DNA from: Nitrososphaerota archaeon
GTDB lineage: Archaea > Thermoproteota > Nitrososphaeria > Nitrososphaerales > Nitrosopumilaceae
Assembly (NCBI GenBank): GCA_028867275.1
Contig: JAGWGU010000002.1
Span: forward strand, 67,667 to 99,666
DNA length: 32,000 nucleotides
Direction: 5' to 3'
Below the pieces are notes generated by a model. It worked only from the letters and a program-made list of their open reading frames with translations. It was not told the DNA's origin and did no database searches. The translations under genes and the position numbers were made by a program. This document shows positions 13,374-28,469 of the stretch, piece by piece. Each line of letters starts with the position of its first letter. Position 1 is the stretch's first letter.

Positions 13374-14630
13374 TTAGAGCTTACCATATTCTTCTTCGTC
13401 AGAGTACGCCCTCTCTGCATGCTCTTCAATATCAAGTCCTGCCTCTTCTACACTAGGACTCACCCTTATCGGAACTAAGGCCTTGATTATCTTGAGAATT
13501 AGCCACGTGCCTCCAAATCCCATCAGTATTGCAATGCCGACTCCAATTGCCTGAGCCCCAAGTTGTCCTGGATTTCCAAATAACCATCCGTTTATTCCAA
13601 GATGGTTTACTGCAGAGTTGGCAAATACTCCTACAAGTAATGAGCCAATAATTCCTGAAACTCCATGAACTGCGCCAATGTCAAGCGCATCATCTATCTT
13701 CAATCGTTCCTTGAGCACTGGCACCATCAGTGATGATGCAAAGCCTGCAATGATTCCAATCACTACAGCATATTCTACTCCCACGTATCCTGAAGCAGGG
13801 GTAATTGCTGCAAGACCTGCAACTGCCCCATTGATTGCAGCAATCACACTAGATTTTCTTGTTCGAATCCAAAATATTACAACCCAGATAAGACATGAGA
13901 CAGCAGATGCCATTTGCGTATTTACTATAGTAATTCCGGAAAGAGAGCCTGCAGCATATGCACTTCCAGCATTAAATCCAAACCAACCAAGCCATAGAAG
14001 TGAAGATCCAAGAACTGCAAGTGGAATATTGTGCGGGACCATGATACCCGGGCCAAATCCAAGTCTTCTACCAAGTACCAGGGCAGCTGCAATTCCACCA
14101 ACACCTGTTGTTGTGTGTATAATCATTCCTCCTGCAAAATCAACCACACCAAGCTTGTGCAACCATCCATCCCCCCAGATCCAGTGTACCAGTGGATAGT
14201 AGATCAGAGCACTCCACGCCACGATAAACAAGACATATGCACTAAACTTCATTCGCTCTGCCACTGCACCAGTAAGTATCAGTGGCGTGATTACTGCAAA
14301 CATCATCTGGAACATTGCAAACGAGACTCCAGGTACAGTTGGCGCATAATGGAGTCCCTCATTTTGAGACACTCCTTTTAGGAATCTCCAGTCCATGTTA
14401 CCTGTGATTCCTTCACCAGTATCAGGACCAAAAGTCAGACTAAAACCTACTGTAAACCACATCACACTTAGCAATGCAAGACCAAAGAAGATCTGCATAA
14501 AGACAGAGACTGCGTTTTTTTGTCGTAAAAGGCCAGCCTCAAACATACCAAGTGCAGGTATCATAAGCAGCACCAAACTAGATGCTATCATAAGCCAAGC
14601 AGTATCACCTGTGTTTATCGGAACGGGCAA
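13374..14630 (-). CDS. amt: Ammonium transporter (Amt/MEP/Rh family)
   Basis: 418 aa with about 11 TM helices. Family signatures GDTAWLMIASSLVLLMIPALGMFEAGLLRQKN, DFAGGMIIHTTTGVGG and GAVHGVSGIIGSLLVGVFA. TTG start at 14630 with an in-frame TGA just upstream. The conserved first TM helix precedes the first ATG. Confidence 0.95.
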   Translation of the reverse strand: MPVPINTGDTAWLMIASSLVLLMIPALGMFEAGLLRQKNAVSVFMQIFFGLALLSVMWFTVGFSLTFGPDTGEGITGNMDWRFLKGVSQNEGLHYAPTVPGVSFAMFQMMFAVITPLILTGAVAERMKFSAYVLFIVAWSALIYYPLVHWIWGDGWLHKLGVVDFAGGMIIHTTTGVGGIAAALVLGRRLGFGPGIMVPHNIPLAVLGSSLLWLGWFGFNAGSAYAAGSLSGITIVNTQMASAVSCLIWVVIFWIRTRKSSVIAAINGAVAGLAAITPASGYVGVEYAVVIGIIAGFASSLMVPVLKERLKIDDALDIGAVHGVSGIIGSLLVGVFANSAVNHLGINGWLFGNPGQLGAQAIGVGIAILMGFGGTWLILKIIKALVPIRVSPSVEEAGLDIEEHAERAYSDEEEYGKL

Positions 14631-17054: not shown

Positions 17055-18443
17055 CTATTCCACACGATGGTGTAAGACAAGCTGATCATAGTATCTCACA
17101 GACTTGACATTTACAAATTCAAGCATTCCATATCTTGAGAGTTCGCGTCCAAATCCACTCTGCTTGACACCTCCAAACGGAATTCTTGGATCAGATATGA
17201 CCACATTGTTTACTGAAACAATTCCTGATTCTATCAATCTAGACAATTTTTCTGCTTTTTCAAGATTTTTGGTCCATATGCTCGCTCCAAGACCATATTG
17301 TGATGAGTTTGCAAGCCTTACTGCCTCATTTTCGTCCTCAACCACAGTCACAGGGGCCACTGGTCCAAACACTTCTTCATGTGCTACCATCATGTCCGGG
17401 GTAACATTGTCAAGCACTGTTGGCGCATAAAAGTAGCCTTTGTCTTTGAGCCTTTTGCCTCCAGTGAGAACTCTGGCTCCTTTGCTGACGGCATCTTTTA
17501 CCATTTCATCTATCCTATGGAGTCCATCGGCATTTACAAGTGGTCCAATGTCTGTACTATCAGACATTGGATCTCCCACGTTTAGTTTTTCCACCTTTTG
17601 CACAAATTGTTCAATAAACTCTTTTGCAAGGTTTTTCATCACAAAAAATCGCTTTGATGCAATACAGCTTTGTCCGCAGTTGATGAACCTTCCCTTGACC
17701 GCACCAGTTGATGCCTTTTCAATATCTGCATCAGAGCAGACTATGAATGGATCACTTCCACCCAACTCCAAAACACATTTCTTGATTTGCGATGTTGCCC
17801 GTTGTGCAACTTTTGCACCAACGATATTACTTCCAGTAAAGGTTACTGCATTTATATCAGAATCAATTAATTTTTCAGCCATACTGGAATCACTTACAAG
17901 TGTTTGAAACACTCCTTCAGGAAATCCAGTTTTTGTAAACATTTTTTCTATTTCAATGCCGCATTGCATGGTCACACTTGCAGGCTTGAGCGCAATGGTA
18001 TTTCCAGCCATCAATGATGGTGCAGCAAATCTCAATGCTTGCCAGTATGGAAAGTTCCATGGCATTATACTTGCTATAACACCAATTGGCTCAAAGGCAA
18101 CAAAACTTTTTCTTGCATCAGTGTTTACCACTTCAGGATTTAGAAACGTCTCTCCATTATCTCCATAAAACTCCATTACCCATGCACATTTTTCCACCTC
18201 GGCAAGTGACTCCTTGAGTGGTTTTCCCATCTCTTGAGTAGCTACCTTTGCAAGAGATTCCTTGTTTTTTCGAAGCTCTTCGGACAAGAGATGTAAAAAC
18301 ATTGCCCTATTTTTAGAATCAACCTTCCATTTAGAAAAGGCCCCTCGTGCCTTGGTTATTTTATTTTTCAGATCTGCTTCTGTTATGTTTTGATATTCAG
18401 ATATGACAACTTCAGTTGCAGGATTGATTGTCTTAATAGACAT
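17055..18443 (-). CDS. NAD(P)+-dependent aldehyde dehydrogenase (succinate-semialdehyde dehydrogenase-like)
   Basis: About 462 aa from ATG 18443; the track begins one codon earlier at TTG 18446. ALDH signatures: FTGSNIVGAKV, catalytic Glu in LELGGSDP, catalytic Cys in FINCGQSCIASKR, and EEVFGPV. Confidence 0.9.
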   Translation of the reverse strand: MSIKTINPATEVVISEYQNITEADLKNKITKARGAFSKWKVDSKNRAMFLHLLSEELRKNKESLAKVATQEMGKPLKESLAEVEKCAWVMEFYGDNGETFLNPEVVNTDARKSFVAFEPIGVIASIMPWNFPYWQALRFAAPSLMAGNTIALKPASVTMQCGIEIEKMFTKTGFPEGVFQTLVSDSSMAEKLIDSDINAVTFTGSNIVGAKVAQRATSQIKKCVLELGGSDPFIVCSDADIEKASTGAVKGRFINCGQSCIASKRFFVMKNLAKEFIEQFVQKVEKLNVGDPMSDSTDIGPLVNADGLHRIDEMVKDAVSKGARVLTGGKRLKDKGYFYAPTVLDNVTPDMMVAHEEVFGPVAPVTVVEDENEAVRLANSSQYGLGASIWTKNLEKAEKLSRLIESGIVSVNNVVISDPRIPFGGVKQSGFGRELSRYGMLEFVNVKSVRYYDQLVLHHRVE

Positions 18444-18464
18444 CAACTCAGCTACAGAAGGATA

Positions 18465-18476
18465 CTATTATATACC
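18465..18476. promoter_or_regulatory. Candidate shared (bidirectional) TATA box
   Basis: CTATTATATACC sits in the 54-nt divergent spacer. The TTATATA core (18468-18474) is centred about 27-28 nt from both the ALDH ATG (18443, minus) and the PhaR-like ATG (18498, plus). Confidence 0.35.
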
Positions 18477-18497
18477 TTTGGTAGGTTACCATTACCA

Positions 18498-18917
18498 ATG
18501 ACTGGTAACTATGACCAACCTGACCCATCGGCAATCTTTAGAGAATGGATCCAGCGAAGCGGCAAGGCACAGATGGACTTTATGAGAACATTTGGCGATA
18601 TGATGAATCGTACAAACCAAACCAACCCACTTGATACATTAAAAGAGATGGCAGACAAAACAACCAAGACACAGACAGATTTTGTACAAAATTTTGCAGA
18701 GAGTGGATCAAAGGCCATGTACAACTGGTTTAACCTTGCACAAAACTTACCCCAGTTTTCATCATGGGGTGCGTTTAAGACATCAGTTGGAAGCAATGGC
18801 AGAATTTCCATACCCGAAGCAGAAAGAGAGGCAATAGGAATCAAGGAAAACGATTTGGTACAAGTGATTGTAGTTCCAATCCATAAAAGTAATTCACGAC
18901 AGGAGGTGAAAAAATGA
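18498..18917 (+). CDS. phaR: PhaR-like PHA granule regulator with C-terminal AbrB/SpoVT-type DNA-binding domain
   Basis: 139 aa from ATG 18498; the track start at 18390 would overlap the ALDH gene. The C-terminus SNGRISIPEAEREAIGIKENDLVQVIVVPI is a looped-hinge-helix (AbrB/SpoVT) pattern. The N-terminal part is helical and phasin-like. It lies next to phaC and phaE. Confidence 0.6.
   Translation: MTGNYDQPDPSAIFREWIQRSGKAQMDFMRTFGDMMNRTNQTNPLDTLKEMADKTTKTQTDFVQNFAESGSKAMYNWFNLAQNLPQFSSWGAFKTSVGSNGRISIPEAEREAIGIKENDLVQVIVVPIHKSNSRQEVKK
18902..18909 (+). promoter_or_regulatory. Shine-Dalgarno sequence GGAGGTGA for the phasin-like gene
   Basis: Full-length SD 4 nt upstream of ATG 18914, inside the 3' end of the PhaR-like gene. 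Confidence 0.55.
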
Positions 18918-19327
18918 GCAAGACAGAAACAAAAGAGGCATATGCAGTATACAAACAAAACATGAATCGATATTTTGAAGAAGCAGAAAAAAATGTCACA
19001 CAATACATTCAGGCAGTTTCAAATCTCCAGCAGGAATTTGCAACAGCATACAAGAATGCAGTAGAGACAGCAATTGAGTTCCAGCAAGAGACAGCAACAA
19101 AGAGTGGCTTTAATGCAAACCTTCCACCAACTTATCTCAAAGCAATCAACGATGCAACAGAGGAGATAGTAAAAACTAGTTCTGTACAAAACAAGGCAGT
19201 ACTAGCAGCAATGGAAGCAGCAAGACAAAACATCAAGACATTCAATGACAACCTGAAGGCATTCACAACTATGGATTCAAGTATACTTCAATCATGGTTC
19301 TCAGCATGGACTCCAAGCAAGAACTAA
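18914..19327 (+). CDS. phaP: Phasin-like helical protein (candidate PHA granule structural protein)
   Basis: 137 aa, all-helical and Ala/Gln/Glu/Lys-rich (YIQAVSNLQQEFATAYKNAVETAIEFQQETATKSG...). ATGA overlap with the PhaR-like gene (18914-18917), mirroring the phaR-phaP pairing known in haloarchaea. Confidence 0.5.
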   Translation: MSKTETKEAYAVYKQNMNRYFEEAEKNVTQYIQAVSNLQQEFATAYKNAVETAIEFQQETATKSGFNANLPPTYLKAINDATEEIVKTSSVQNKAVLAAMEAARQNIKTFNDNLKAFTTMDSSILQSWFSAWTPSKN

Positions 19328-19345
19328 CCATTAATTTTTCATTTT

Positions 19346-20416
19346 TTATTTTTCAGATCTTTCGGTAAGCCATTGGCCAAATTCAGGAAGAACCTTTTTT
19401 TGTGAAAATGAACTTGCGATCATGCCCACATGCCCAGTGGGGTATATCTTTAGCGTCTTGTCTTGACTTGATACAGAATAGTGAATCGGCATGCTGCATT
19501 CGGGCGATACCAAGTGATCACCCACTGCAACCTGTGTAAGAAGCGGCATGGCAATATTTTTCAGAGACACCCGTCTTCCCCCCACGTACATGTTGTTATT
19601 TATCAAGAGATTTTCTTGGTAGACATCTTTTATCCACTGGCGGAACAACTCTCCTGGAATTGGAGGTGTATCAGAGATCCATTTTTCCACTCGAATAAAG
19701 TTTTCAACATATTCTTTATCATGTATATTTTTAAAGAAATTAAGATATTTTTCAAAGCCTTGCTCAAATGGTTTTAGTATTGAGAAAACATAATACATCA
19801 GCTCAGGAGGCATGTTGCCAAGTGTGTCTACCAACTTGTCAACATCCATATGTTTTGCCAAGTTTGATACTACGGTACTATCTCTTCTTCCGTCAATCAC
19901 GGGGGCAGTAAGAACCAAGTTCTTTATTTTTTCAGGATGTAATGCAGAATAAACGGTGGAGAGGGTACCGCCAGTACAATATCCTTGCAGTGATACTGCA
20001 TCAGACGAGGATTCTTTTCTAATAAAATCTATACAGTTGTCCATATAACCATTGACATAGTCATCAAACCCCTCATGTCGATTGATTTGAGTTGGTGTTC
20101 CCCAGTCAATCAGATAGACATCAACTCCCTGATTTAGCAAGTTTCTCACCCAGCTCTTTTTTGGATGAATATCCAAAATGTGGAATCTGTTTATCAAAGC
20201 ATATGCAATCACAAGCGGTGTCTTCATTTGCCTTTGAACCAATGGATTAAAGTGTAATAATCGAACTTTTCCTTCAGAGTACACAACTTCATTCGGAGTT
20301 ATTTCAAGATCTATCTCATCAAGAGATTGGGCAAGATTTGGTGCCTCTAGTATGTTCTTGTTTAGTTTGATAAAGTCTGCCAATAGCTGTGGATCTACTT
20401 TTATTTCATTTGCCAT
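19346..20416 (-). CDS. phaC: Class III poly(3-hydroxyalkanoate) synthase, catalytic subunit PhaC
   Basis: 356 aa, the size of class III PhaC. Lipase-like box with catalytic Cys in LQGYCTGGTLS. Conserved Asp in AVGDHLVSP and His in PTGHVGM. SD GGGAGGA (complement of 20424-20430) lies 7 nt upstream of the ATG. Confidence 0.92.
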   Translation of the reverse strand: MANEIKVDPQLLADFIKLNKNILEAPNLAQSLDEIDLEITPNEVVYSEGKVRLLHFNPLVQRQMKTPLVIAYALINRFHILDIHPKKSWVRNLLNQGVDVYLIDWGTPTQINRHEGFDDYVNGYMDNCIDFIRKESSSDAVSLQGYCTGGTLSTVYSALHPEKIKNLVLTAPVIDGRRDSTVVSNLAKHMDVDKLVDTLGNMPPELMYYVFSILKPFEQGFEKYLNFFKNIHDKEYVENFIRVEKWISDTPPIPGELFRQWIKDVYQENLLINNNMYVGGRRVSLKNIAMPLLTQVAVGDHLVSPECSMPIHYSVSSQDKTLKIYPTGHVGMIASSFSQKKVLPEFGQWLTERSEK

Positions 20417-20417
20417 T

Positions 20418-20984
20418 TCAAGTTCCTCCCTTGTTTACTATTTTTTCAAGTTTGGCAACTCTTTTTCGCAAAGAGTGTAGTTCTTTGTACACTTCACCCA
20501 TCTCTTTCTTCGTAGGCATGTTTGCACTCTCAAGTAGTGTGGACGCCATGTTGTTCCAGTGCTTTGCGATTTCAAGCTCACTTGATACAAGTTTGCCAAA
20601 GTTTTCAGCAAAATCAGCAGAGTCAAAGAGCCTAGTAAAGTAGTTTTCAAATATATCTATCCATATGCGTTTTGAGGCCTCTACGTGTTCGGTATCATTT
20701 GGAAGTTCAGGTACTTTTCTAGTGTATTCTTTTTGGGCCTCATTCCATGTATCTGTGAGTTGTTTGTAGTAGGCAGACAATCTAGTGTTAAATTCTGCCA
20801 TATCTTCATTCATCTCTATTGTTTCTGTGCCAAGGTGTTTGGCGTTGATGGCAAATTTTCGAAATGGTCCAGTGGCAGCAAGTGATTGTTGCCTATTTGA
20901 CATTAGGTACAACAGATCAGTCCAGAAAAGAGAGTTGTGCTTGTAATTTGCTAATGATTTTTTCATATCAGGTGGAATAGACAT
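20418..20984 (-). CDS. phaE: Class III PHA synthase subunit PhaE
   Basis: 188 aa helical protein. Its stop lies 1 nt before the phaC ATG, giving the phaE-phaC order typical of class III synthases. The size matches the short haloarchaeal-type PhaE. Confidence 0.72.
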   Translation of the reverse strand: MSIPPDMKKSLANYKHNSLFWTDLLYLMSNRQQSLAATGPFRKFAINAKHLGTETIEMNEDMAEFNTRLSAYYKQLTDTWNEAQKEYTRKVPELPNDTEHVEASKRIWIDIFENYFTRLFDSADFAENFGKLVSSELEIAKHWNNMASTLLESANMPTKKEMGEVYKELHSLRKRVAKLEKIVNKGGT

Positions 20985-21088
20985 GTGAAATAGAATAAAG
21001 TAGATTTCTATACATATAGAGATTACTAGATATCAATCTTACATATAACAAATTGTTAAAAGGATGTACATGTAATAACCAATATCAA

Positions 21089-21529
21089 ATGTCAAAATCT
21101 CAACCCCAGGAAAAAACTATGGATGTCAAGCATTCCCTTTCAGTGTGTGATGTGGTGAGGGACAATACAAATGAAATCATAATGAAGATTGAGGGCTTGC
21201 TGCCAACATATATTGAAAGCTTTGCAGATTTGCAGGCGGAAGGCTTGCGTATTGCAAGAGACTTTTTTGGCACATGCTATATTGCAGAAAAAGAGATTCT
21301 TGACAACATGGGAGTAGACCAAAATGCAATAGAATCATTTGACAAGTATTCAAAAGCAGTAACAAAGACTGCCATATGTGAGATAGACATGATGAACAGT
21401 TTTCAAAAGACATTTGTAGAAAACATCATGTCAGCAATGAAATCATATGATGATTATATAAAACTCATGCTGTCATCTTATGCCAAGATGTTAGACTACA
21501 CCATAATTACAATTCCAAAGAAAAATTAA
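21089..21529 (+). CDS. Helical protein divergent from phaE (possible second phasin / granule-associated protein)
   Basis: All-helical composition (IESFADLQAEGLRIARDFF...SFQKTFVENIMSAMKSYDDYIKLMLSSYAKML). The start is ambiguous: TTG 21053 (track), ATG 21089 or ATG 21119. Confidence 0.5.
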   Translation: MSKSQPQEKTMDVKHSLSVCDVVRDNTNEIIMKIEGLLPTYIESFADLQAEGLRIARDFFGTCYIAEKEILDNMGVDQNAIESFDKYSKAVTKTAICEIDMMNSFQKTFVENIMSAMKSYDDYIKLMLSSYAKMLDYTIITIPKKN

Positions 21530-21629
21530 CTATTTTCCGATCTTTTTAGTGAACAAGGCTTTACTGATATTGTCATAACTAATATCGCTAAAAACTTATT
21601 TTGTTTGCAAGGTCTCAAGATTCACGCTG

Positions 21630-22418
21630 ATGAAGGAAAAATTTGTTACGATAAACAGGAATAACATAAGATATTTAGAAGATGGTCACTCTGATCGCAA
21701 TTTGATCCTCCTACACGGACTTGGAGGATATGCAGAAAGGTGGAGTAACTTGATGCCCCATATGAGTAAAAAATATCATATTTTCGCTCCAGATCTTATC
21801 GGGTATGGCCAAAGCGACAAACCTTCAGTGGATTACACTCCAGAACTCTTTACAAAATTTGTTTTTGATTTTATCAGTACACTTGGAATCAAAAAGACAT
21901 GCATGATAGGCACTTCGCTTGGAGGCCAAATAGTAGCCGAGTGTGCAGCGACACAAAGTGCCATGATTGAAAAGATAATTTTGATCTCTCCTGCAGGCAT
22001 AATGCGAAAGTCTACTCCCACACTGGATGCATATACAATGGCAGCATTATACCCAAACAAGGATTCTGTAAAAAATGCATACCAGATGATGGTAGGTTCA
22101 GACAAGCAAGTATCAGAGGTATCAATTGAGAGATTTGTCAACAACATGTCAAGGCCAAATGCAAAGATGGTATTCCTGTCTACACTCTTAGGATTAAAGA
22201 ATGCACCTGACATTTTTGACAAGTTGCAAAAGATCAATGTCCCTACACTAATAATTTGGGGCATGGAGGACAGGTTGATACCCTTCGAATACTCGCACCA
22301 GTTTGTATCAGCAATCAAAGGCAGTAAACTTGTGCCAATGGAGGGATGTGGTCATTCCCCATATGTTGAGGACCCAGAAAAACTGGGAGAAATAGTGGAC
22401 AGATTCCTATCAAGATAG
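21630..22418 (+). CDS. Alpha/beta-fold hydrolase (MhpC/BphD-like; candidate esterase or PHA depolymerase)
   Basis: 262 aa. Oxyanion HGLGG, nucleophile elbow GTSLGG, Asp in WGMEDRLIP and His in GCGHSPYVEDPE. Confidence 0.85.
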   Translation: MKEKFVTINRNNIRYLEDGHSDRNLILLHGLGGYAERWSNLMPHMSKKYHIFAPDLIGYGQSDKPSVDYTPELFTKFVFDFISTLGIKKTCMIGTSLGGQIVAECAATQSAMIEKIILISPAGIMRKSTPTLDAYTMAALYPNKDSVKNAYQMMVGSDKQVSEVSIERFVNNMSRPNAKMVFLSTLLGLKNAPDIFDKLQKINVPTLIIWGMEDRLIPFEYSHQFVSAIKGSKLVPMEGCGHSPYVEDPEKLGEIVDRFLSR

Positions 22419-22525
22419 GCCCATGTAGCAGAATCATGTATGAGAATCACATCAATACAAATAAGGAATAACCTAGCAAGTGTAGACATGCTGAACAGTC
22501 TTTTACAAGAGGAGTATTACACGTC

Positions 22526-23335
22526 ATGAATCTATTTCTGGCAAACAAGACATTAGATGAGATCTTGCCAGAATCAGTATTTTCCACACCGGCAGTAAGC
22601 ATCAGAGTTGATGACACGCTAGGTGATGCCGCATCTCTTCTTCCTCACCACCTTGAGACATTGACTGATTCGCTGGTTGCAACAAGCAATGACAAGCCAG
22701 TTGGCATAGTAGGAGGAATTGAGGTCCTAGAGGGCATCATAAAAAACCAGACTCCAGGTTTTCTTGACAAGGCAAAGATAGGAGATGTAATGAGTAAGAA
22801 ACTTGTCATTGTGAATCCAAAGACCAAGTTTTCAGAGTTGGCAAAACAATGGTCACAAACAAGAAGGGCATTTGCTATAATACCTAACCAATATCATGGT
22901 TATTCAGTAATCTCGGCAAGAAAGATTCTTGACGTAGGTGTTTTGTTTAAAACCAACACTACAATTTCTGTAGTTCCAAGAAGAAAGATAGCTACATTTC
23001 ACAAATATGATACAGTAAGGCAAATAATTCAGCGCATGTTTGACAATAAAACTCGCAAGCTAGTACTAGATGGTACAGACTCTTTTATCAGTGACAGAAT
23101 AATCATACAGAAACTGGTCAGAGAGTTCAACTGCCTCAGAGATGGAAGAGATTTTCTGGAAACAGGTTCAGACATTTTCAGCCTAGAGCAAGCAAAGAGG
23201 GCATCAGAGGATCTCACAATTACCGAAGCATGCAGGATCATGCAAGAGATGAGATCTCCATACCTAATGAGTAATGAGAAAACAATCAGCCCGTGGGATA
23301 TCATATCAGTTCTTGCTTTTGAAAACTTGTCATAG
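22526..23335 (+). CDS. CBS-domain (Bateman module) protein
   Basis: 269 aa with repeated CBS-like beta-alpha-beta-beta-alpha segments, for example VSIRVDDTLGDAASLL...KPVGIVGGIEVLEGI and VMSKKLVIVNPKTKFSELAKQW. No catalytic domain recognised. Confidence 0.7.
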   Translation: MNLFLANKTLDEILPESVFSTPAVSIRVDDTLGDAASLLPHHLETLTDSLVATSNDKPVGIVGGIEVLEGIIKNQTPGFLDKAKIGDVMSKKLVIVNPKTKFSELAKQWSQTRRAFAIIPNQYHGYSVISARKILDVGVLFKTNTTISVVPRRKIATFHKYDTVRQIIQRMFDNKTRKLVLDGTDSFISDRIIIQKLVREFNCLRDGRDFLETGSDIFSLEQAKRASEDLTITEACRIMQEMRSPYLMSNEKTISPWDIISVLAFENLS

Positions 23336-23364
23336 TTTAAAATGACAAGTAATAGACAACAAAT

Positions 23365-23790
23365 ATGGCTACAAATGAAGGAAGAACAAGTTTTGCCATA
23401 AATCACAGGCTTTTACTTTGTTGTCTTTTTTCACTTGCCTTCATAGGCACTACATATTATTACATAGATAACAGAAAGCAAGCATATGAAATACAATGGA
23501 TTGTCATATCCATTGCATGGTATAGTGCCATTTGTTTTAGTATAACCAAGGTCCTTTACAAGGCAAGAATTGGCTATCTGCTTGCAGGCATAGTGTCGTG
23601 GGCAACACTTGCATTTTTGATATTGGACAATTACGACGTTGTATTTCAGACAACAATTACAACCAAGCAAGACGACATCATTACAATACGAAATCTAATC
23701 CTAGCCGGAATAGTATCACTTGGCATATTATCCTCTCACAATGCATTCCACAAGTTCAATCACGTACAAAACAAAGCAAAATTTACGTGA
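23365..23790 (+). CDS. Integral membrane protein (4 TM helices), unknown function
   Basis: 141 aa with four hydrophobic helices. Confidence 0.55.
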   Translation: MATNEGRTSFAINHRLLLCCLFSLAFIGTTYYYIDNRKQAYEIQWIVISIAWYSAICFSITKVLYKARIGYLLAGIVSWATLAFLILDNYDVVFQTTITTKQDDIITIRNLILAGIVSLGILSSHNAFHKFNHVQNKAKFT

Positions 23791-23865
23791 GAGAACATTA
23801 ACACAGTGTAGAGATTTTGAGAATCATAGAAAACATCATACATAACAACACAAACTAGATCATAC

Positions 23866-24948
23866 ATGCGTGTAGAAGGTAGAGAAAAACATTGCAATGA
23901 AAATGTACTTGTTCTCCAAGGCGGAGGATCTCTTGGTGCCTATGAATGTGGAGTATACAAGGCAATTGACAAGCTCAAGATAAAGATAGATGTTGTTGCA
24001 GGCACTTCGATTGGAGGAATAAACTCTGCAATAATTGCTGCAACAAAGAGTGGTAATCCTGCAAAAGATTTGGAAGAGTTTTGGCTCACATTGGCACAGA
24101 CAGTAACATCGCCCTTTCTTACGGAACATATGAGAGAGATTTCATCATCAATCTATTCTGCAATATGGGGAAACTCTAATGCATTTTTCCCACTTTGGCT
24201 GACACCATCATTTGGATTTTTGTACAACTCGCCATATCTTTATGACATGTCTCCTCTGAAAGTAACGCTCGAAAAGTTTGTAGATTATTCAAAACTCAAG
24301 GATCCTTCAAGACCAAGACTCATAATAACTTCAACAGACATCCAAAATGGAAAACCGTCCATATTTGACAGCAAGTATGACAATTTCACATCAGAGCATG
24401 TTCTTTCAAGTGCTGGATATCCATTTTATGGAATCTCGTGGACCAAGGTAGGTAACAGGTACCTATGGGATGGAACGCTACTAAGCAATACACCCCTAAG
24501 GGAGGTAATTTATGCCTCACCTGTGTGTGACAAGCGAGTTATACTTGCAAACCTGTTTCCTAAAGGACAAGAAGACATCCCAAAGAACATGATGGAGTCA
24601 TGGCATAGAGCAAGAGACATCATGCATACAGACAAGACAGACCAGACAATTCGAACGTCAAAAATAATTTCAAGATACCTTACAATAATAAACAAGATGC
24701 ATGATATTTTGGAATCCATCCCGCTTGATGATGCAAGCAGGAAAAAACTTGTAGAAATTGAACCAGAGTTTAACAAGCTTGCCCGCCAGAGAGGGGCCAT
24801 AATAAAAGAAATAGTCAGGATAGAAAGAAGTGAAGATTCGCACTATCTTTTTGAAGACGCAGACTTTTCAATTGATACTATAAAGAAGTTGATAAGATCT
24901 GGAGAACAAGATGCAAGAACAGTCCTTGAAGACTTTGGTAAAAGCTAG
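23866..24948 (+). CDS. Patatin-like phospholipase-family serine hydrolase
   Basis: 360 aa. Oxyanion LQGGGSLGAYECGV, nucleophile GTSIGG and catalytic Asp in WDGTLLSNTPL together form the Ser-Asp dyad pattern of patatin. Confidence 0.88.
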   Translation: MRVEGREKHCNENVLVLQGGGSLGAYECGVYKAIDKLKIKIDVVAGTSIGGINSAIIAATKSGNPAKDLEEFWLTLAQTVTSPFLTEHMREISSSIYSAIWGNSNAFFPLWLTPSFGFLYNSPYLYDMSPLKVTLEKFVDYSKLKDPSRPRLIITSTDIQNGKPSIFDSKYDNFTSEHVLSSAGYPFYGISWTKVGNRYLWDGTLLSNTPLREVIYASPVCDKRVILANLFPKGQEDIPKNMMESWHRARDIMHTDKTDQTIRTSKIISRYLTIINKMHDILESIPLDDASRKKLVEIEPEFNKLARQRGAIIKEIVRIERSEDSHYLFEDADFSIDTIKKLIRSGEQDARTVLEDFGKS

Positions 24949-27140: not shown

Positions 27141-28469
27141 TTGCTACAGAACCAGGATCCAGTAGCCTTACGTGAAGAGATTCAAAAAATCATGGTAAAT
27201 AATGGTTTTAAGAGAGAGTGCTATGCCAAAATTCTAGACTATACTATAAACCTGTTCGAGTCAAAGGGTCTTGGTGTAGAGTATTACGGATATCATAACA
27301 TTATCCACGAACTAGAAGTAACTTATGTAACTCTACTTGCAGCTCAATGGGAAAGCATCCAAGGCATTCTCAATTCGGAGGATTTTCCATACCTCTTTGT
27401 TGCAGCGCTGTTTCATGACTATGATCCTCAAAAAAAGGTAGACAAACCGCATGAAGAAGACGCCGTAAGATTTGTCATGACAGATGAAAAGCTACACTCG
27501 TTACTAAGAGATGCAAATATTGATAAAAATTTGATTGCTGCACTAATCCACAGGACCACATATCCTTGGAGCGGAGAAATAAAAGAAATCACGGAGAAAA
27601 AAATTGAAGATTGTCTTAATTCATCAGATGTTGTAAGAGATGATCAAAACAAAAGATCACATTTCAAGAGGATGGGATGGTTCCTCTCAGTCACGGACAG
27701 GATTGCAGGATACACACTTGGAGACTTTGCAAAAGCATTAGAGATGGCGCAAAAAAACGCTCATGCACTAGCATGGCATCCATATTACATCGTTAGAAGA
27801 TCTGTCGCATATTTTGAGGATCTTCTCAACAATGACGCAGAAATGTATCAGAGTGTTTTACAAGCACTTCCAAAAGACATGAGAAAACATTTCACAGACA
27901 ATGTATTGTCTTTTATGAAATTACGTGAACAAGAAATTCAGATTGAAGGATCACTTGTGTATGATAATACAAAATTCTTTGCAGTAATAGAGTCAATGTC
28001 AAATAGGCAAGCGCCAGAATTCATAGATACACTATCAGAAATTCATAAACAATTACCAAAACCACTTCAATTCAAAAAGGATAATTTTGTAGAATCGGTC
28101 ATGGCAAAAGACACCATACTAAACACACTAAGACTTGGAAGTGACAATGGCCCCATCATAGGTTTTACAAAAGGAGGACCACTTGAGACATACAAATTGC
28201 GACCCGAGATAAATGATGTAAACCATGGACTCAAGAATACAGCATTTATGGAACCGCTTGCAATTAGGATGGGTTATTGGGGACAGAGAGGTGGAAGAGA
28301 GATGAGATTGTTATTTAACATGCAGGTTCAAGCAAAAGGATACAAGTATCTTACAAGTTTTGCATTACGCGACGTGATTGCAAGCAGAATTGAAAGAAAT
28401 GAGCAGATTGAATTTGTAAAGCAATTTGACCCAGAACGCTGGGATTATTATCGTATTGTACTACAATAA
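27141..28469 (+). CDS. HD-domain phosphohydrolase-like protein fused to a GNAT-like C-terminal domain
   Basis: 442 aa. The N-terminal YHNIIHELEV...AALFHDYDP forms an H...HD motif. The C-terminal PLAIRMGYWGQRGGREMRLLF resembles the acetyl-CoA-binding Q/RxxGxG/A loop of GNAT acetyltransferases. Start is TTG 27141 or ATG 27192. Confidence 0.65.
   Translation: MLQNQDPVALREEIQKIMVNNGFKRECYAKILDYTINLFESKGLGVEYYGYHNIIHELEVTYVTLLAAQWESIQGILNSEDFPYLFVAALFHDYDPQKKVDKPHEEDAVRFVMTDEKLHSLLRDANIDKNLIAALIHRTTYPWSGEIKEITEKKIEDCLNSSDVVRDDQNKRSHFKRMGWFLSVTDRIAGYTLGDFAKALEMAQKNAHALAWHPYYIVRRSVAYFEDLLNNDAEMYQSVLQALPKDMRKHFTDNVLSFMKLREQEIQIEGSLVYDNTKFFAVIESMSNRQAPEFIDTLSEIHKQLPKPLQFKKDNFVESVMAKDTILNTLRLGSDNGPIIGFTKGGPLETYKLRPEINDVNHGLKNTAFMEPLAIRMGYWGQRGGREMRLLFNMQVQAKGYKYLTSFALRDVIASRIERNEQIEFVKQFDPERWDYYRIVLQ

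Follow-up and report, generated by a model that had tools for sequence, protein, structure and literature searches.

A conserved polyhydroxyalkanoate locus in a Nitrosotalea ammonia oxidiser, with a homologue of haloarchaeal PhaR and candidate phasins and depolymerases

Which genes beyond the synthase itself serve polyhydroxyalkanoate (PHA) storage in ammonia-oxidising archaea, and how closely does that gene set follow the one known from haloarchaea? The question is raised by positions 17055–24948 of a 32-kb stretch of archaeal DNA (the window, by which we mean the whole of that stretch), for which an original prediction from sequence alone had proposed a PHA granule gene set in the style of Haloferax mediterranei. 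Every gene that it named was found in this interval, which holds a genuine and conserved PHA locus from an ammonia oxidiser of the genus Nitrosotalea. The label haloarchaeal-style is right for the regulator PhaR and for the short synthase subunit PhaE, wrong for the phasin, weak for the patatin-like hydrolase and unsupported for the CBS-domain and membrane protein genes.

The phaEC genes, PHA signals and a monomer supply derived from carbon fixation are already known in these archaea. Thaumarchaeal PhaC sequences served as an outgroup in 2010 (PMC2939530), and phaCE has since been reported in essentially all sequenced ammonia-oxidising archaea, and an acquisition by their last common ancestor has been inferred (PMC3835317, PMC4084955, PMC7554672). 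Raman bands of PHA and granules rich in carbon have been described in N. gargensis and N. maritimus (PMC11082331), and the derivation of monomers from the 3-hydroxypropionate/4-hydroxybutyrate (3HP/4HB) cycle, by way of 3-hydroxybutyryl-coenzyme A (CoA), has been proposed (PMC3835317, citing Spang 2012). Canonical depolymerases are given as absent in the published genome papers on these archaea, and a 2024 survey screened KEGG orthologues only, including the KEGG PhaR entry K24257. Our literature search found no description of an AbrB-type PhaR homologue, of the helical protein family or of the linked hydrolases in ammonia-oxidising archaea. Three elements appear to be new, as annotation and as hypothesis: a PhaR shared across phyla, for which an operator is predicted; a family of phasin candidates with a paralogue; and a conserved hydrolase as depolymerase candidate.

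The synthase genes and the conservation of the locus

The PhaC encoded in the window is 95% identical to that of Nitrosotalea assemblies and 92% identical to that of Ca. Nitrosotalea devanaterra, which agrees with the thaumarchaeal context that had been proposed and, on sequence grounds, identifies the source as Nitrosotalea (order Nitrosopumilales; acidophilic soil ammonia-oxidising archaea). The genes on which the argument turns are as follows:

18468–18498, plus strand: phaR promoter and candidate operator, a TATA-like TTATATACC and a dyad TTGGTAGGTTACCATTACCAA.
18498–18917, plus strand: phaR homologue, an AbrB-domain protein of 139 residues (TIGR01439, 29.4 bits).
18914–19327, plus strand: phasin-like helical protein, called PhaP1 here from its position and helical amphipathic character, 137 residues.
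19346–20416, minus strand: phaC, class III PHA synthase catalytic subunit, 356 residues (TIGR01836, 430.5 bits).
20418–20984, minus strand: phaE, short-type class III synthase subunit, 188 residues (PF09712, 46 bits).
21089–21529, plus strand: second phasin-like helical protein, PhaP2 or Hel2 (Hel2 below), a diverged PhaP1 paralogue by sequence, 146 residues.
21630–22418, plus strand: alpha/beta-fold serine hydrolase with a GTSLG box, 262 residues (PF00561, 96 bits).

The AbrB and helical protein genes had been described as a convergent pair. The two genes in fact share one orientation, with an overlap of 4 nt (ATGA, read directly), but as a pair they do converge on the 3′ end of phaC. A Shine-Dalgarno-like GGAGGTGA lies ahead of phaP1 (18900–18917), and phaP1 is translationally coupled to phaR. 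A scan for intrinsic terminators between phaP1 and phaC, made with a bacterial model, found none. The phaE stop codon lies 1 nt ahead of the phaC ATG on the same strand (junction read directly), with a Shine-Dalgarno-like GGGAGGAA ahead of phaC (window 20417–20430), and the second helical protein gene is present divergent from phaE as predicted, at 21089–21529 (plus strand), across a spacer of 104 bp.

A class III phaE-phaC pair with a catalytic GYCTGG box had been called, and profile searches for both subunits bear this out. PhaC passes TIGR01836 (430.5 bits against a cutoff of 365.3, with 344 of the 350 model positions covered), its GYCTGG box occupies residues 145–150, and an alignment of 82 homologues, that of Haloferax included, shows C147, D300 and H329 to be invariant. 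PhaE passes PF09712 (46 bits against 25.7) in a match confined to the C-terminal third of the 311-position model, a higher score than that of the characterised H. mediterranei PhaE (28.3 bits). It falls below the NCBIfam cutoff of TIGR01834, a model built for long bacterial PhaE (37 bits against 154.95), as does the H. mediterranei protein (29.1 bits). Pairwise similarity between the two PhaE proteins is weak (BLASTP E 3e-5), and they share the short haloarchaeal length (188 residues in the window, 182 in H. mediterranei). At the level of sequence, phaE and phaC are thus shown to encode a two-subunit class III synthase. The likeness to haloarchaea does not extend to the whole of PhaC, which is 41% identical to H. 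mediterranei PhaC but has 356 residues as compared with 492 in Haloferax, being without the haloarchaeal C-terminal extension of roughly 130 residues. In length it resembles instead the PhaC of bacterial class III loci such as the Allochromatium vinosum and rhizobial phaEC (about 355 residues), and like a protein of that class it passes TIGR01836; its identity to rhizobial class III PhaC is 36–40%. Bacterial PhaE, however, is about twice as long as that of the window, and bacterial PhaR and phasins are unrelated families, none of which is matched by window proteins.

The gene order also differs from that of H. mediterranei, which is maoC(phaJ)-phaR-phaP-phaE-phaC on pHM300. There the regulator operon precedes phaEC, whereas in the window it converges on phaEC; the window has neither maoC/phaJ nor a nearby phaB-like reductase gene, and it has the second helical paralogue and the hydrolases that the H. 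mediterranei cluster does not. Common to both are the overlap of phaR with the downstream helical protein gene (phaP in Haloferax) and Shine-Dalgarno-like sequences ahead of internal genes.

To this single locus we added 80 Nitrosopumilales loci collected with PhaC, which cover Nitrosotalea, Nitrosotenuis and sediment and groundwater clades at 69–95% PhaC identity. In every locus with enough flanking sequence (about 80 Nitrosopumilales species, down to 50% PhaR identity), phaE-phaC faces phaR-phaP1; a phaR homologue is present in every informative Nitrosopumilales locus, and phaP1 is always downstream of it. In the commonest layout the hydrolase, phaR and phaP1 genes run in one direction and are convergent on phaC and phaE, which run in the other. 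Nearly all loci have a homologue of the alpha/beta hydrolase next to the pha genes; it lies upstream of phaR or beside Hel2, some lineages having both copies, and it adjoins the pha genes even where all other flanks differ. The accessory genes do, then, co-occur with phaEC in related genomes, universally for phaR-phaP1 and nearly always for the hydrolase.

The PhaR homologue and its candidate operator

The AbrB-domain protein had been proposed as the counterpart of H. mediterranei PhaR, and comparison upholds this assignment. The protein scores 29.4 bits on TIGR01439 (cutoff 28.3) and misses the cutoff of Pfam PF04014, MazE_antitoxin (23.4 against 24.7 bits). It is 67% identical to the PhaR of pHM300 over 39 residues of the AbrB domain (E 3e-16), and when 71 thaumarchaeal PhaR sequences were aligned with three haloarchaeal PhaRs by hhalign the probability was 99.3% (E 1.6e-20, 81 columns). 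By domain identity and profile alignment it is a true homologue of H. mediterranei PhaR. The Haloferax protein is a repressor of phaRP and is bound to granules (PMC7137286, PMC10948481). In public records these homologues are named only as AbrB/MazE/SpoVT family or hypothetical proteins.

The context of the matches is consistent with this assignment. A search of 72,556 plasmids with PhaR returned haloarchaeal AbrB/MazE/SpoVT-family genes as all of its significant matches, with generic AbrB/MazE proteins at E 4 or worse. All five of the matches that we inspected lie directly upstream of a gene for a small helical protein, and four of these five pairs adjoin phaE-phaC; in the fifth, from Haloarcula JP-L23, phaEC is not nearby. 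The thaumarchaeal and Haloferax PhaRs alike place the AbrB/SpoVT swapped-hairpin domain at the C-terminus, behind a helical, non-AbrB N-terminal region, and the window protein is the longer of the two (139 residues as compared with 110). The thaumarchaeal N-terminal region contains many invariant residues; taken alone, it has no significant similarity by hhalign to the N-terminus of haloarchaeal PhaR. The idea that this region is phasin- or PhaE-like was also rejected, there being no hhalign signal.

Read directly, the sequence upstream of phaR has the TATA-like TTATATACC and after it the dyad TTGGTAGGTTACCATTACCAA, which extends into the ATG. Across 73 loci the region has the consensus gTTAaATACC..TTGGttAttATTACCAATG, in which gTTAaATACC is the TATA box, at about −31 to −23, and TTGGttAttATTACCAATG is a near-palindrome of the form TTGGTWA-N3-TWACCAA that ends at the phaR start codon. 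The spacing of the TATA box and the ATG indicates a leaderless or near-leaderless phaR transcript. Both the TATA box and the dyad are kept whether the upstream gene is a divergent dehydrogenase or a co-directional hydrolase. ACCWA/TWGGT half-sites occur 1.86 times per 43 nt upstream of phaR, relative to a background of 0.18 in the loci overall, an enrichment of about 10-fold. A site of the form TTGGT-N5-11-ACCAA occurs once in the 32-kb window, at 18478–18498, with 0.47 expected by chance, which is not significant alone, and such a site recurs at phaR in about 25 loci; the case for an operator carries weight because the position is conserved and not because of the single match in 32 kb. In one clade (L049–L059 of our loci) the TATA box is flanked on both sides by phased ACCAAT copies, four in all. 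At the phaE, Hel2, hydrolase and patatin promoters, each of which has its own conserved TATA-like element, there is no enrichment of the motif. The stretch from the TATA box to the start site is where archaeal repressors typically bind, and the near-palindrome conserved there, up to the phaR ATG, suggests autorepression by PhaR.

Repeats of a similar core are found in haloarchaea. The regions upstream of phaR in H. mediterranei and Halogeometricum borinquense contain four or five phased ACCAY/RTGGT repeats within 50 nt at a period of about 10 bp (L081:5700-5790, L082:5850-5910), for which the Poisson P is about 8e-4 in H. mediterranei and 3e-5 in Halogeometricum, and whose core is similar to the thaumarchaeal half-site. 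Upstream of phaR in Haladaptatus and H. larsenii the repeats are present in degenerate form only.

Candidate phasins, depolymerases and monomer supply

The description of PhaP1 as phasin-like holds in part: a small amphipathic helical protein is encoded right after phaR, but it is without detectable homology to haloarchaeal PhaP or to the Pfam and NCBIfam phasin models. The AlphaFold2 model (pLDDT, the predicted local distance difference test, 74.6) predicts a long helical hairpin with a short C-terminal helix (H3-63, H72-119, H122-132), and the hydrophobic-moment z score relative to shuffled sequences is 5.8 for PhaP1 and 4.8 for Hel2, with 7.6 for Haloferax PhaP, the amphipathic character being comparable. 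In both systems, then, the protein after PhaR is small, acidic to neutral and amphipathic, with homology undetected. Its isoelectric point is 5.5 as compared with 4.1 for H. mediterranei PhaP, and its C-terminus, ...LQSWFSAWTPSKN, is not the Asp/Glu-rich tail typical of haloarchaeal PhaP.

Homology of PhaP1 to known phasins was rejected after BLASTP, Pfam/NCBIfam, hhalign, profile and Foldseek searches. The BLASTP comparison with H. mediterranei PhaP gave E 16, and scans of 22 members of the PhaP1 family matched none of them to a phasin model at E up to 1. When 1.84 billion representative proteins were searched with a profile, 343 clusters at 50% identity were returned, and among the top 150 matches none is markedly acidic like haloarchaeal proteins and none matches PhaP. 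The N. sinensis orthologue of PhaP1 (92% identity) has the automatic UniProt name "Phasin domain-containing protein", the basis of which we could not reproduce. The haloarchaeal PhaP set comprised proteins of Haloferax, Halogeometricum, Haladaptatus, H. larsenii and Haloarcula. Matches to phaC on haloarchaeal plasmids were taken to enlarge it, and most proved to be integrase-MaoC-PhaC cassettes without phaR or phaP. Several haloarchaeal plasmids (L086–L089) carry the cassette in conserved form together with SHOCT-domain genes and without phaE, phaR or phaP, and the cassettes look like mobile phaC paralogues.

The Hel2 and PhaP1 families align with each other by hhalign at 99.5% (E 4.4e-22, 127 columns; pairwise BLASTP E 0.003), and Hel2 is, as judged from this profile alignment, a diverged paralogue of PhaP1. 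By position and physical character we regard both proteins as phasin candidates, whose family is known to date from ammonia-oxidising archaea only. On one metagenomic contig (L095:4027-4461) a PhaP1 homologue (46% identity) lies downstream of a radical SAM gene and not of phaR.

The remaining genes of the interval are the following:

17055–18443, minus strand: aldehyde dehydrogenase, succinate-semialdehyde dehydrogenase (SSADH)-like, 462 residues (PF00171, 492 bits).
22526–23335, plus strand: CBS-domain protein, 269 residues (PF00571, 50 bits).
23365–23790, plus strand: small predicted membrane protein, 141 residues, without a family match in Pfam or NCBIfam.
23866–24948, plus strand: patatin-like serine hydrolase, 360 residues (PF01734, 85.8 bits).

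As a candidate PHA depolymerase the conserved alpha/beta hydrolase ranks first, a choice that rests on its near-universal adjacency to the pha genes and not on its sequence. It shares the alpha/beta fold and the GxSxG box with the Bacillus-type intracellular PHA depolymerase (NF050089; PDB 8ynv), and the 8ynv poly(3-hydroxybutyrate) depolymerase is among its top PDB matches (E 3e-20); meta-cleavage-product hydrolases and lipases match it equally well or better. A specific relation to the hydrolase beside the Haladaptatus pha cluster was rejected, the match being a partial N-terminal one of 31%.

The patatin profile check was positive (PF01734, 85.8 bits), and the reading of this protein as a depolymerase like H. 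mediterranei PhaZh1, which we located on pHM500 through its locus tag in PMC11218638, stands for the patatin domain with its Ser/Asp dyad but not for close relationship or gene context. The two proteins have in common the patatin fold, the GxSxG serine and the DG(T/L) aspartate motif, the GTSIG and WDGT of the window protein aligning with the GTSGG and WDGL of PhaZh1. Besides GTSIG and DGT the protein has a DUF3734-like C-terminus (PF12536, 21.6 bits against a cutoff of 22), and in the plasmid set it is closest to patatin/DUF3734 proteins of bacteria (27–34% identity). Unlike phaZh1, it has no bdhA or short-chain dehydrogenase/reductase (3-hydroxybutyrate dehydrogenase) gene beside it. From its motifs and domain, it is a candidate for a second depolymerase, or a lipase, in Nitrosotalea.

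The flanks vary among lineages. Nitrosotalea-like lineages carry the extra Hel2 and a second hydrolase copy beside phaE, have the patatin gene upstream of the hydrolase-phaR operon and the aldehyde dehydrogenase gene divergent from that operon, and are the only ones in which the patatin, Hel2 and SSADH-like genes are linked to the cluster. In the lineage of the window the phaR-side hydrolase has been lost, the patatin gene follows Hel2, the hydrolase, the CBS gene (where present) and the membrane protein gene, and the dehydrogenase gene abuts phaR. The patatin gene is thus linked in two gene orders in these lineages, and in Nitrosotenuis and others it is not near phaEC. That it has been retained through rearrangement argues for a functional linkage. 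The dehydrogenase, by comparison, always marks the same flank, and its linkage may therefore be plain synteny. As parts of a conserved set, the CBS and membrane protein genes that the prediction had included do not hold up: many of the closest Nitrosotalea loci lack the CBS gene and others have it, so that it is probably an indel within the cluster and not a core component, and the membrane protein is found only in the closest Nitrosotalea relatives (40–73% identity). A relation of the CBS protein to the CBS gene near a Haloferax phaC paralogue was rejected, the similarity being at the level of the domain only.

The listed genes are present in the interval, but its first 1.4 kb is the aldehyde dehydrogenase gene (17055–18443, minus strand), which had been omitted. 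This gene is divergent from phaR across a 54-bp spacer, apparently with one shared TATA element. The protein scores 504.6 bits on the NCBIfam model for NADP-dependent SSADH, below the cutoff of 730, and its best PDB matches are the SSADH structures 4it9 and 3vz1 (E 4e-121). The enzyme could link 4-hydroxybutyrate/succinate-semialdehyde metabolism to the locus, or its position could be mere flank synteny.

Two further genes of the window lie near the cluster. A 442-residue protein encoded at 27141–28469 (plus strand) is conserved beside the cluster in Nitrosotalea at up to 93% identity and has a weak PDEase_I/HD-type match of 20 bits, below cutoff. The open reading frame (ORF) at 13374–14630 (minus strand) resembles by eye an Amt-family ammonium transporter and is conserved near the cluster in many Nitrosotalea loci (83–98% identity).

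The absence here of phaA, phaB and MaoC/PhaJ, which had been remarked on, agrees with a scan of window ORFs, which returned no gene for a thiolase, a reductase or a MaoC protein. The substrate of PHA synthases is (R)-3-hydroxyacyl-CoA and the thaumarchaeal cycle makes the (S)-isomer, so that an epimerase, an (R)-specific route or the achiral 4HB-CoA or 3HP-CoA would still be needed. None of the scanned ORFs would fill that need.

Alternative explanations and significance

We consider it likely that this is a PHA carbon-storage locus, composed of the PhaEC synthase, a PhaR-regulated operon, phasin-like coat proteins and candidate depolymerases, and fed by monomers derived from the carbon-fixation cycle. 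PhaR would probably repress its own operon through the dyad-symmetric TTGGT...ACCAA site that lies between TATA box and start codon and, by analogy with Haloferax, would be titrated away when granules form. PhaP1 and Hel2 would coat the granules as phasins. The alpha/beta hydrolase would be the PHA depolymerase said to be missing from these archaea, with the patatin as a second candidate in Nitrosotalea, and hydroxyacyl-CoA intermediates of the 3HP/4HB cycle, the enzymes of which would be encoded outside the window, would supply the precursors. A more specific proposal is plausible to us but falls short of being probable, namely that ammonia oxidisers have granule machinery of their own, in which PhaR and the ACCA-type operator logic are shared with haloarchaea, the phasins belong to a family without detectable relation to known phasins that is duplicated in Nitrosotalea, and the hydrolase is the depolymerase.

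A number of observations weigh against the PHA-storage reading or parts of it. For the phasins, amphipathic helices are common to many helical proteins and not specific to phasins; the PhaP1 family aligned with haloarchaeal PhaP by hhalign at 1.6% with three sequences and 1.3% with five; PhaP1 is unmatched in Pfam/NCBIfam, where the curated phasin models are PF09361 (Phasin_2), TIGR01841, TIGR01985 and TIGR01837; and a Foldseek search of the PDB with the PhaP1 model returned 0 matches. The AlphaFold2 model of PhaR is poor (pLDDT 51) and unusable. The operator is drawn from conservation only and overlaps the start codon in part, and the haloarchaeal repeats lie upstream of the TATA box, whereas the thaumarchaeal dyad lies downstream of it. 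Both hydrolases belong to very broad families: the alpha/beta hydrolase scores 111.8 bits on NF050089, the model for intracellular short-chain PHA depolymerase, below its cutoff of 300, and the patatin is 21% identical to PhaZh1 over 286 residues (E 3e-10), a superfamily-level relation only. Deletion of phaZh1 in Haloferax left mobilisation in vivo unaffected (PMC4823750), and PHA was undetected by Raman in Nitrosotenuis uzonensis (PMC3835317). The synteny that holds throughout Nitrosopumilales was not seen in a sample of three Nitrososphaeraceae contexts, found with a distant family representative as query. There the PhaP1 homologues (26–27% identity, E 1e-11 to 1e-15; L096:8001-8486, L098:5903-6379, L100:2335-2871) have neither phaEC nor phaR within 8 kb. 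The tight cluster, which is demonstrated for Nitrosopumilales only, may be specific to that order.

The unlinked Nitrososphaeraceae homologues also fit the most serious alternative, that only phaEC and perhaps phaR are PHA-related and that the other neighbours, such as hydrolases of lipids or esters and housekeeping genes, have been kept by background synteny. Such synteny does exist here, as flanking Amt-like, nitroreductase and PAP2 genes are also syntenic in Nitrosotalea, showing some of the linkage to be of this kind; the CBS and membrane genes are present in some close relatives and missing in others, and the hydrolase, patatin and CBS proteins have broad-family matches with none at a PHA-specific cutoff. 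We nevertheless judge this account unlikely. It does not readily explain why phaR-phaP1 is bound to phaEC in all of the approximately 80 loci, across genera and down to about 41–50% identity, why the hydrolase remains adjacent despite differing flanks and the patatin survives rearrangement, or why phaP1 has the same translational coupling to a PhaR homologue that phaP has in Haloferax.

Two narrower alternatives concern single components. It is quite improbable, in our view, that the patatin is an anti-phage phospholipase effector and not a PHA enzyme: its best NCBIfam and PADLOC matches are effectors of the cyclic-oligonucleotide-based antiphage signalling system (CBASS) type, but at 43–44 bits these scores are far below the 200-bit cutoff and cover the generic patatin domain only, no cyclase or other defence partner was found nearby, and the gene stands beside pha genes in two orders across Nitrosotalea-like lineages. 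Least probable of all is that the AbrB and helical proteins form an antitoxin-toxin-like pair, or a general AbrB/SpoVT transition-state pair, that merely lies beside phaC. A small two-gene operon with overlapping genes would suit such a pair, as would the AbrB protein's best Pfam match, which is to MazE_antitoxin (PF04014, 23.4 bits, below the cutoff of 24.7). However, its AbrB domain is C-terminal behind a conserved 90-residue region, an arrangement that Haloferax PhaR has and MazE and AbrB do not; the plasmid search matched only haloarchaeal AbrB genes in the phaR position, generic AbrB/MazE proteins being at E 4 or worse; the linkage to phaEC is strictly vertical and universal and has no mobile-element signature; and PADLOC gives no match.

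Under the more specific proposal of a granule machinery of their own, a PhaR and operator logic shared across phyla would point to an old archaeal module of PHA control or to an ancient transfer together with a short-type phaE-phaC. That the haloarchaeal style is found in PhaR and the short PhaE but not in the phasin bears on how PHA systems spread among archaea. A further possibility in Nitrosotalea is that the adjacent SSADH routes 4-hydroxybutyrate units back to central metabolism. Ammonia-oxidising archaea are among the most abundant microbes of soil and ocean, and how they survive energy and carbon starvation is an open question. This locus and its conservation across about 80 Nitrosopumilales species name candidates for the regulator (PhaR), the granule coat (the helical family) and the depolymerase (the hydrolase and, in Nitrosotalea, also the patatin).

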